64,000 nt of DNA, from NCBI GenBank assembly GCA_965226495.1, contig OZ245365.1, forward strand, positions 832,001 through 896,000. Direction: 5' to 3'. The notes under the pieces are model-generated. The model was not told the DNA's origin. It did no database searches and was given only the letters and a program-made list of their open reading frames with translations. Shown here piece after piece: positions 11,796 to 13,127 of this stretch. Numbering within the stretch: position 1 is the first letter of the stretch; the number at the start of each line of letters is the position of its first letter. Made by a program: the position numbers and the translations under genes. This DNA is from Candidatus Marinacidobacterales bacterium. Its GTDB lineage: Bacteria; Acidobacteriota; Vicinamibacteria; Marinacidobacterales; DATDRI01.

Positions 11796-13127
11796 ATGGC
11801 CCGACAGAGTGTCTTCCTTTCGGCAATCCTTTTGATCGGTGCGACTGTCGCGGGTGCAGAGGAATACGAGCCGCGGATCGGCGAGCCCTTCCCGCGTCTG
11901 CGGTTGCCGTCACTCGAGGATGGAAGCCCCCTCTCCGTGGCGAGCTTTCGAGGCAAGAAGGTCGTTCTTCATATCTGGGCCTCCTGGTGAGCGGGTTGCC
12001 GTAAGCACGTGCCCGGGTGGCACTCGAGAACGAAACAGCTCGCCGAGCGTGGTGAGGTGCAGGTAGCGGGGATCATCCAGGAGCAGCATCCGGATCGAGC
12101 CCGTCTCTTCATGCAGTGGAAGGGAATGGACTGGCCGATCATGATCGACTCCTTGAACCTATTGGGGGTCGCGGCAGTTCCGATCACGCTGCTTATCGAC
12201 GAGCACGGTGTCATCCAGGCCGTCCAACCGAGTGACGAGGATTTTCAAGACTTCCTAGGACGTTCGTACCCAACGAGCGAAGCGAGGCAGCAAGCCATCG
12301 CCGAACTACCGGGAGACGCGACATTTTTGTGGGAAGACGTCGCCCAAGTTGGCGAAGCGATCGACGCGTACCGTCAGGCTCTGGCAAGGGAAAGAGACGG
12401 CTCCATCCACTTTCGTTTGGGAGTTGCCTATCGGCGGCGCCACGACTCGGCCTATCGGCGCGACGGGGATTTCGCGAGGGCGGTCGAGCATTGGGGCAAG
12501 GCGCTCGCTATCGATCCGAATCAGTACATCTGGCGGCGCCGCATTCAGCAGTATGGACCGCGGCTCACTAAACCTTATTCCTTCTACGATTGGGTCTCGG
12601 ACGCGCGGCAGGAGATCGAGGCGAGAGGGGAGGCATCTGTGCCGCTCGACGCCGAGCCGGGCGGGGCGGAGTTTGCCTACCCGGCGGAGAGCTTTACGAC
12701 CACCGACTCGTTGGGGAAGGAGCCAGATCCTCGAGGCCGCATACGCCGAGACGAGGAAGGCTTGATCCGGGCGGAGACAATCGTCGTGCCCGCAGTTATG
12801 GCTGCCGGAGAGTCGGTTCGGGTTCACGTCGTCTTCCGTCCCAACCCTGATATCAAGGCGCATTGGAACAACGAAGCCGACGATCTGGTCTTTTGGGTGG
12901 ATGTGCCGGAGGGGTGGGAGGTCGACCAACGCTATTTGACCGTCTCCATCCCACCCGAGCCGGTTAGCCAGGAAGTACGAAGGGTCGAGTTCGAGCTCAA
13001 GAGCCCGGCTAATGCTTCGAGTATCACCATGATGACGCCCTATGTTCTCTACTATGTCTGCGAAGATGTGAACGGCGCATGCCTTTTCCGTAGGCAAGAT
13101 CTCCCAGTGAAAATCCAGGTCGACTGA
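11796..13127 (+). CDS. putative selenoprotein (443 aa): signal peptide + TlpA/redoxin domain (UxxC) + TPR-like segment + DsbD-N-like domain
   Basis: ORFs 11742..11990 and 12009..13127 share a frame and are separated only by TGA 11988-11990 in WASW-U-AGC. C-terminal [11 protein letters not shown]ys pair. Confidence 0.8.
12009..12023 (+). promoter_or_regulatory. candidate bacterial SECIS apical hairpin
   Basis: GTGCC-CGGGT-GGCAC stem-loop beginning 18 nt after the UGA, with G in the second loop position. Confidence 0.5.

Follow-up and report, generated by a model that had tools for sequence, protein, structure and literature searches.

The stretch of DNA analysed here (the window, 64,000 nt; positions 832,001-896,000 of contig OZ245365.1, assembly GCA_965226495.1, Candidatus Marinacidobacterales bacterium, whose genome is a single 6.34-Mb contig) carries at 11796-13127 a selenoprotein gene that, judged by its sequence, is real and mis-annotated. 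The predicted product is an exported protein in which a redoxin domain with selenocysteine (Sec) in a U-x-x-C active site is followed by a tetratricopeptide repeat (TPR)-like segment and by an immunoglobulin (Ig)-like domain with a cysteine pair. A preliminary description of the window had proposed a hidden selenoprotein at this locus, and the proposal is borne out by a conserved in-frame TGA, by a hairpin just downstream of it and by full Sec machinery in the genome.

A single in-frame TGA splits the annotated gene

The reading frame that starts with the ATG at 11796 is open to the TGA at 13125-13127, and the TGA at 11988-11990 is its sole interruption in the translated window. Homologues align across residues 1-443, each with a single internal TGA. 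The codon lies, as the preliminary description had stated, at the position of the first cysteine of a TlpA/ResA-type motif. The thioredoxin-like sequence does continue past it: the Pfam models Redoxin (51.2 bits, cut-off 26.6) and AhpC-TSA (47.8 bits, cut-off 26) both match residues 28-148, spanning the TGA. When open reading frames (ORFs) are called with translation table 11, the gene breaks, as had been anticipated, into 11742..11990 (82 aa) and 12009..13127 (372 aa), the second of which starts at the GTG at 12009, within the hairpin described below.

All 120 of the database homologues listed are truncated at the N-terminus, and this widespread family is represented in public protein sets nearly always by 'hypothetical' or 'TPR repeat' proteins that are N-truncated and lack the catalytic half. 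Because of such records, both the function of the protein and the demand for selenium are under-read in many soil and marine metagenome-assembled genomes (MAGs) of Acidobacteriota, Gemmatimonadota and Verrucomicrobiota.

The internal TGA is predicted to encode selenocysteine

We predict, with near certainty, that the UGA at 11988-11990 is read as Sec via SelB and tRNA-Sec. The gene was found in 14 of 41 related genomes searched (a set that includes the unpublished genome G007); exactly one TGA is present in each of the 16 match rows spanning residue 65, and in all 12 loci fetched from these genomes the TGA stands inside WASW*AGC. A scan of one genome per species returned 485 relatives among 500 candidate stretches, of which the best 80 loci were analysed together with the window's own copy (the 81-locus set). 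The MAG labels of the 80 loci, which can be wrong, name Acidobacteriota, Gemmatimonadota, Verrucomicrobiota, Poribacteria, Methylomirabilota, Phycisphaerae and others. At the U column all 81 loci have TGA, never TAA or TAG, and the terminators of the same genes are mixed (TGA 37, TAG 31, TAA 13). Conservation of the codon among homologues, on which the preliminary description had counted, is therefore seen both in the related genomes (12/12) and in the wider set (81/81). Even sampling of the phylum (301 genomes, among them the unpublished G089) found the gene in 21; at least one TGA is present in each of the 20 rows spanning residue 65 (one of them from G089), the TGA column being unverified in this sample. 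No claim made here rests on G007 or G089 alone.

Contigs of four public runs, from four studies, agree with the assembly: they have neither TGC nor TGT, nor any other letter, at 11988-11990, rare variants being dropped in contigs and one of the four runs possibly being the source sample. One of these contigs spans 11796-12110 without any difference.

The machinery sought in the genome is complete, with selA (570 bits), selB (378 bits), selD (333 bits) and tRNA-Sec (70.9 bits) all above their curated cut-offs; ARAGORN calls the last as tRNA-SeC with anticodon TCA (UCA). Since selA is present in 40 of the 41 relatives, it does not discriminate the presence of the selenoprotein gene. The selD match itself holds one in-frame TGA (G000:C1:5697778-5698710, locus L011), which suggests that selD is likely a Sec-containing selenophosphate synthetase and that the Sec machinery of this organism serves more than one gene.

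Two other readings of the codon were weighed. The TGA could be a true stop that divides two genes or lies in a pseudogene, in which case the similarity that continues past it would be a relic. Table 11 calling indeed gives two ORFs, the second from within the hairpin, no expression data were found, and none of the public runs listed as holding the gene is RNA; these points count against decoding as Sec. However, termination here would break off the thioredoxin fold at the catalytic residue, where a strand gives way to a helix, and it agrees poorly with a TGA, never TAA or TAG, that is kept in all 81 loci with both flanks conserved, and with complete Sec machinery. We regard this reading as extremely improbable. 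Just as little credit can be given to UGA being read as Trp, Cys or Gly through a reassigned code or near-cognate suppression. UGA is reassigned in some bacteria, but nothing specific favours this here: the genome encodes release factor 2 (RF2, 509 bits), and the window gene and 37 of the 81 genes terminate in TGA. Mixed terminators, the presence of RF2 and the TGA at the end of the gene itself mark UGA as an ordinary stop in this organism, one that is not reassigned. The site is, moreover, the position of a redox-active cysteine, and tRNA-Sec, selA, selB and selD are all there.

A conserved SECIS-like hairpin follows the UGA

The hairpin said in the preliminary description to start 18 nt downstream of the TGA was confirmed at 12009-12023. 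In most relatives the stem has a sixth pair (12008 with 12024); in the window these positions are C and U, which makes it one of 8 rows, among 79 distinct ones, in which this outermost pair does not form. Third-codon-position conservation across the 81 genes is 0.89 at +15 to +29 after the UGA, compared with 0.49-0.68 in the bins from +30. Codon use in the hairpin is similarly uniform: Val is GTG in 81/81 genes (0.39 elsewhere in the same genes), Pro is CCC in 72/79 (0.35 elsewhere) and Gly is GGG in 66/71 (0.22 elsewhere). In the stem (alignment columns 21-26 with 32-37) 98.1% of the cells are paired, versus 16.5-63.3% when the partner columns are slid, and the changes that do occur mostly keep the pair (G-C to G-U).

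According to a 2026 review (PMC13188914), a bacterial selenocysteine insertion sequence (bSECIS) has a stem of 4-16 bp and a loop of 3-9 nt with a G within its first two positions; the loop lies 16-37 nt from the UGA, and the minimum free energy (MFE) is -7.5 kcal/mol or lower. The hairpin falls within these published ranges, with a 5-nt loop, a G at position 2, a stem of 5-6 bp and 23 nt from UGA to loop. Its MFE in the window, -7.5 kcal/mol, is exactly at the limit (median -9.6 kcal/mol; -7.5 kcal/mol or lower in 75/81 loci).

Many contigs of the public runs fit the window at 90% identity or better over approximately 11974-12023 only, with divergence to either side; their flanking letters suggest that they come from relatives. 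In the four runs this bin has summed contig depths of 118, 57, 4 and 130. Contig matches form another, smaller island (57.5 in run X4, 14.3 in run X1) at 12516-12560, which covers the invariant linker described below. Parts of the gene without contig cover carry no information.

Some results speak against the hairpin as an insertion signal. Its stem in the window is only 5 bp long, and the 76 nt after the UGA fold no better than shuffled sequences (z -0.47; 56 of 200 shuffles equal), so folding energy alone cannot carry the claim. Stem covariation did not attain significance (its score was matched by 70 of 500 shuffles, and only two cells differ on both sides), since there is almost no variation in the stem, and it is conservation that supports the hairpin. 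No Rfam family matches the hairpin region: a scan of 11000-14000 at E <= 10 gave no SECIS family and only a chance snoRNA match elsewhere.

Domain architecture of the predicted selenoprotein

The features of the gene and of its predicted product are collected in Table 1.

Table 1. Features of the selenoprotein gene and its predicted product, in window coordinates
Feature	Position	Strand	Basis
Complete read-through coding sequence	11796..13127	+	443 codons plus TGA terminator; Sec is codon 65
Signal-peptide-like N-terminus, residues 1-21 (Arg3, hydrophobic core, A-G-A before EE)	11796..11858	+	Read from sequence
TlpA/ResA/CcmG-like thioredoxin-fold (redoxin) domain, residues 28-148	11877..12239	+	Pfam and Foldseek
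Active-site motif W-A-S-W-U-A-G-C, residues 61-68	11976..11999	+	[WF]ASW*AGC in 80/80 further loci
Predicted UGA selenocysteine codon, residue 65	11988..11990	+	TGA in 81/81 loci
SECIS-like hairpin GUGCC-CGGGU-GGCAC (5-bp stem GUGCC/GGCAC, loop CGGGU)	12009..12023	+	Starts 18 nt after UGA
Pro129 of invariant V-P-[IL]-T loop	12180..12182	+	V128, P129 and T131 invariant in family alignment
TPR-like helical segment, residues 172-253	12309..12554	+	Pfam at 219-242; helices 172-253 in model
Nearly invariant Arg/aromatic linker, residues 240-268	12513..12599	+	Invariant columns in family alignments
Ig-like beta-sandwich with H-W-N-N-E motif, residues 320-443	12753..13124	+	AlphaFold2 model
Invariant Cys pair C422-x6-C429 (C-E-D-V-N-G-A-C) across last beta-hairpin	13059..13082	+	Family alignments
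Genuine TGA terminator of the selenoprotein gene	13125..13127	+	RF2 present in genome

Export, claimed earlier, agrees with the signal-peptide-like N-terminus and with an in-frame upstream start followed by a hydrophobic h-region in 78 of the 81 loci. Modelling of the read-through protein, suggested in the preliminary description, gave a thioredoxin-like first domain, for which Foldseek returned ResA, CcmG, Etrx and other thiol-disulfide oxidoreductases (E ~1e-6, TM(target) 0.57-0.75). In the AlphaFold2 model the redox motif is situated at the junction of strand 56-61 and helix 63-67, and Pro129 occupies what we take to be the position of the cis-proline in thioredoxin folds.

The claim of a TPR-like segment also holds. 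Residues 172-253 form helical hairpins in the model, with one TPR over threshold at residues 219-242 (TPR_2 31.0 bits, cut-off 27; TPR_1 28.9, cut-off 27.8; TPR_11 29.1, cut-off 26.8), and TPR_2/TPR_11 match 49 of 63 family members. The linker that follows is conserved more strongly than any other protein segment of the family, but its residues 250-263 have a predicted local distance difference test score (pLDDT) below 50 in the full-length model; it may be a docking segment for a partner. Among longer fused forms there is just one, an 839-aa one-off.

The C-terminal domain is Ig-like and carries a cysteine pair

An AlphaFold2 model of residues 240-443 (63-row alignment; pLDDT 90.0, predicted template-modelling score (pTM) 0.81) shows a beta-sandwich from about residue 320. 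The two cysteines lie on the two strands of the last hairpin, placed at 416-423 and 429-435 in the full-length model. The matches listed in a Foldseek search of the PDB are generic Ig-like, macroglobulin and PapD-like domains. The beta domain and its cysteine pair are thus present as the preliminary description had them, but the spacing is C-x6-C (in 80/80 loci) and not C-x5-C.

The same description had likened this domain to DsbD-alpha; this likeness is not supported, all tests of homology to DsbD_N having given results below threshold. The window protein has no match to Pfam DsbD_N (PF11412; gathering score 25 bits). The model matches three of 63 whole family proteins (best E 0.0072) and two of 41 isolated domains (best E 0.029); Pfam NPCBM_assoc/NEW3 matches 12 of the 41 isolated domains (best E 0.00086). 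A search of the genome with PF11412 found three other loci, and the selenoprotein locus was not among them. Against 23 genuine DsbD_N domains from related genomes (the locus from G007 was left out), hhalign gave a probability of 0.9% and an E of 0.06, with an alignment, below significance, that is colinear over 89 columns and includes the first strand, the His motif and Y-x-x-C-[DE]-D. Searching the sequences of the PDB with a profile gave no matches, DsbD is absent from the Foldseek PDB matches listed, and the ESM Atlas gave unnamed clusters (0.90), a cluster with 11% DsbD_N appearing only at rank 24 (score 0.84). The DsbD_N domains of the same order have, in addition, C-x4-C and not C-x6-C. 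All of this weighs against a redox role modelled on DsbD, and a disulfide across a hairpin of an exported domain could have a structural role only. As the results from Pfam, hhalign, the PDB profile search, Foldseek and the ESM Atlas were all non-significant, a common origin of the Ig-like domain and DsbD_N was set aside as unsupported.

The cysteine pair is lost together with the Sec site

The relation between the Cys pair and the Sec site was followed in the 150 best representatives at 50% identity, out of 360 with E <= 1e-30. Of these, 142 start after the U column, which is the pattern produced by the confirmed TGA genes. Both cysteines are present in 135 of these N-truncated (Sec-type) representatives, while the C-terminus is absent in three and aberrant at this place in four. 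Eight representatives extend further towards the N-terminus, three of them (P0219, P0224 and P0268) being gapped or misaligned at the U column. The remaining five have S-x-x-C (three cases), S-x-x-S or C-x-x-S there, and none keeps the Cys pair; P0250 retains only its first cysteine. A C-x-x-C form of the family was not found among the 150 best representatives; at the level of the domain, U aligns with the first Cys of the TlpA, ResA and DsbE models.

The five relatives with Ser or a lone Cys at the U column (P0221, P0252, P0258, P0238 and P0250; 468-500 aa, 34-39% identity) retain the TPR, linker and Ig-like parts, and they may be redox-dead binding proteins derived from the selenoprotein. 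In a tree built with FastTree from 54 of 149 usable rows (the query, the five non-Sec forms and one Sec-type row in three), the five require at least two independent changes, and P0250 falls inside a Sec-type clade with 99% support. Set against this, the co-loss was observed in five representatives from two or three lineages.

A second selenoprotein module is present in this genome at G000:C1 ~2426613-2427705 (locus L136:813-1905, + strand). Its upstream gene, in which a TGA lies in frame within S-W-U-P-F-C, encodes an exported redoxin of the AhpC-TSA type (111.7 bits), and its downstream gene, the start of which is overlapped by the redoxin gene by 8 nt, encodes a stand-alone exported DsbD_N protein (40.7 bits, cut-off 25) with the Cys motif YQVCTDVAC. 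A same-strand upstream W-TGA-P[FY]-C redoxin gene was found at 20 of the 23 DsbD_N loci of the order (L136, L141 and 18 others among L119-L139); one of the three exceptions is too short upstream to tell. The redoxins of the window protein and of the two-gene unit align U to U with 23% identity. The two-gene units, together with the fusion to a Cys-pair Ig-like domain in the window, show Sec-redoxins repeatedly coupled to an Ig-like Cys-pair module in this lineage, and by analogy the window protein may be a fused, diverged version of the Sec-redoxin plus DsbD_N theme. Co-loss and two-gene units favour a second redox centre. They lend indirect support to the Sec-based electron relay on one polypeptide that had been proposed for this locus, the relay itself being a matter of interpretation.

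Proposed function and alternative explanations

The data show the recoding signals, the folds, the export signal, the conservation and the joint loss of both motifs; from these we infer, as follows, how the chemistry, a relay and its direction of electron transfer, and the binding of clients would work. The small hairpin with the CGGGU loop, 18 nt past the UGA, would direct Sec insertion. In the mature protein, Sec65 would be the attacking and Cys68 the resolving residue of U-A-G-C in a thioredoxin fold: Sec65 would attack a disulfide or an oxidised thiol of a client, and Cys68 would resolve the selenosulfide. The protein is probably a thiol-disulfide (selenosulfide) oxidoreductase of the cell envelope. 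Its TPR/linker part would hold the client or a partner. Cys422 and Cys429 could form a second redox centre in exchange with that of U-x-x-C, a tentative proposal that we find plausible but short of probable; such an arrangement would resemble the thioredoxin-like and Ig-like domains of DsbD, or the separate proteins of the Sec-redoxin/DsbD_N unit elsewhere in this genome. The explanation that we prefer for the locus as a whole, with moderate confidence, is an exported Sec-redoxin-TPR-Ig oxidoreductase with a possible second Cys centre. An extended version appears doubtful to us: a selenium-obligate, self-contained envelope relay with the Sec and the Ig-like Cys centres on one soluble polypeptide and a TPR/Arg-rich module that selects clients, which would be a fused counterpart of the Sec-redoxin and DsbD_N gene pairs and in which loss of Sec would lead to the redox function, second centre included, being abandoned and not to conversion to C-x-x-C. 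The full-length model (27-row alignment, pLDDT 71.6, pTM 0.51) has weak linkers and at this pTM gives no domain contact, which counts against the preferred explanation.

The enzyme could instead have a single redox centre, with the Cys422-Cys429 disulfide being structural only and stiffening the last hairpin of an Ig-like binding domain. We consider this a lesser but real possibility. The TPR and Ig-like parts would then act in client binding or in anchoring of the enzyme, a role to which we give a similarly limited probability. Structural disulfides are frequent in exported proteins, the Ig-like domain matches generic folds and NPCBM_assoc/NEW3, and the DsbD_N tests remained below threshold, all of which fits a single centre. 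A structural disulfide, however, need not follow the active site, whereas the pair is lost exactly in the forms without Sec, at least twice, and elsewhere in the lineage Sec-redoxins are coupled to a Cys-pair Ig-like protein. A different role, that of a CcmG/TlpA-type maturation factor that reduces apocytochrome c or the cysteines of copper sites, with the TPR acting like CcmI/CycH, would agree with the similarity of the redoxin fold to CcmG and ResA and with the seven members, among 63, that Pfam TPR_CcmH_CycH matches (best E 1.5e-5). Matches to generic TPR families are much more frequent, however (49/63), and there is no cytochrome-maturation or copper-chaperone gene among the conserved neighbours. 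The gene also has a patchy distribution (14 of the 41 relatives, 21 of the 301 genomes sampled across the phylum), which fits a core maturation factor badly. We judge this role to be quite improbable. The preferred reading of an exported Sec-redoxin-TPR-Ig oxidoreductase, taken together with the Sec-redoxin and DsbD_N pairs, points to selenium as the basis for part of the thiol-disulfide chemistry in the envelope of these bacteria.

Gene neighbourhood

No neighbouring gene family is common to more than five of the 81 loci. The neighbourhood therefore indicates neither an electron donor nor a client, a point against the preferred explanation, and the protein works alone or with partners encoded elsewhere. 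Its local neighbours in the window, a truncated low-molecular-weight (LMW) phosphatase fragment on the other strand and ArsR-like HTH_20, AHSA1 and Ldh_2 genes, are not conserved with it, and for this reason the LMW-phosphatase fragment, the ArsR-like gene and the AHSA1 gene are not counted as part of the system.

The 88-aa ORF at 11531-11797 (- strand) matches positions 1-73 of a 144-position LMW phosphotyrosine phosphatase/ArsC-type model and, given this partial match, looks like a truncated gene. Its ATG and that of the selenoprotein gene overlap on opposite strands in the palindrome CCATGG, so that neither gene has room for a promoter between them; a promoter and terminator scan gave nothing informative for the selenoprotein gene. 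Downstream, an AT-rich spacer (13128-13213) that contains a palindrome (TTGTACGTACAA) and, at 13176-13204, a promoter-like site precedes the ArsR-like HTH_20 gene (13214-13846), the end of which overlaps the AHSA1/SRPBCC gene (13839-14435). The HTH_20 and AHSA1/SRPBCC genes are possibly an autoregulated two-gene unit.

Comparison with known systems

The preliminary description had called the locus a candidate for an undescribed system, which is too strong: UxxC selenoproteins with a thioredoxin fold (Prx-like, TlpA-like and redoxin) have been catalogued since the Sargasso Sea and Global Ocean Sampling (GOS) analyses (PMC1088965, PMC2398784), and UxxC redoxin selenoproteins are also listed in the 2026 review (PMC13188914). 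As these texts describe them, the catalogued proteins share with the window protein the Redoxin/AhpC-TSA fold, Sec as the first residue of U-x-x-C and a SECIS 3' of the UGA, and they too are computation-only predictions. In the passages compared, each is entered under one domain and none is described with the TPR segment and the Ig-like Cys-pair domain of the window protein, and they have many Cys homologues, whereas the window family is without C-x-x-C among the sequences examined. The terms 'TPR' and 'tetratricopeptide' occur zero times in the available texts of PMC13188914, PMC2398784, PMC13326102 and PMC12013277. In the literature searched, with catalogue supplements and exemplar records outside the comparison, a redoxin-TPR-Ig selenoprotein architecture is not described, and no paper was found for 'WAxxUGC'. 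The family may be hidden under catalogue entries such as 'Redoxin family protein' or 'Thiol-disulfide isomerase-like protein'.

NCBIfam release 20 has no model of the family's own. The best match is NF041054 (ResA-like WAxxUGC motif-containing protein, WAxxUGC_long), a curated model for a ResA-like selenoprotein, which shares the W-A-x-x-U start and scores 78.6 bits, far under its 300-bit cut-off; the match covers only positions 85-244 of the 354 of the model and residues 33-197 of the protein. In a search of the genome with NF041054 no locus reaches the cut-off, and the window gene scores 65.5 bits. With TlpA, ResA, CcmG (DsbE) and Etrx (1st9, 2h1g, 2b1k, 1kng, 4hqz and 4nmu) the window protein has in common the fold, W-x-x-W-[C/U]-x-x-C and the export signal. 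These are Cys-containing single-domain proteins, whereas the window protein has Sec, an invariant A-G dipeptide and 290 additional residues.

In DsbD, the thioredoxin-like gamma domain passes electrons to the Ig-like alpha domain. The window protein resembles DsbD and the Sec-redoxin plus DsbD_N units in being exported and in combining a thioredoxin-fold centre with an Ig-like Cys-pair domain, and it shares with DsbD_N a Cys pair in the C-terminal hairpin that is preceded by aromatic residues (Y-x-x-C-[DE]-D). Unlike DsbD, it has no membrane domain, its pair is C-x6-C instead of the C-x4-C of the DsbD_N domains of the order, and its domain order is presumably reversed relative to that of DsbD. 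A large family with Sec or Ser and no C-x-x-C among the sequences examined is a useful stress case for the method, and we find the apparent absence of a Cys version and the possible second redox centre to be its most interesting points. UxxC redoxin selenoproteins as such are known; what appears new, against the literature searched, is the redoxin-TPR-Ig build without a C-x-x-C version among the sequences examined.

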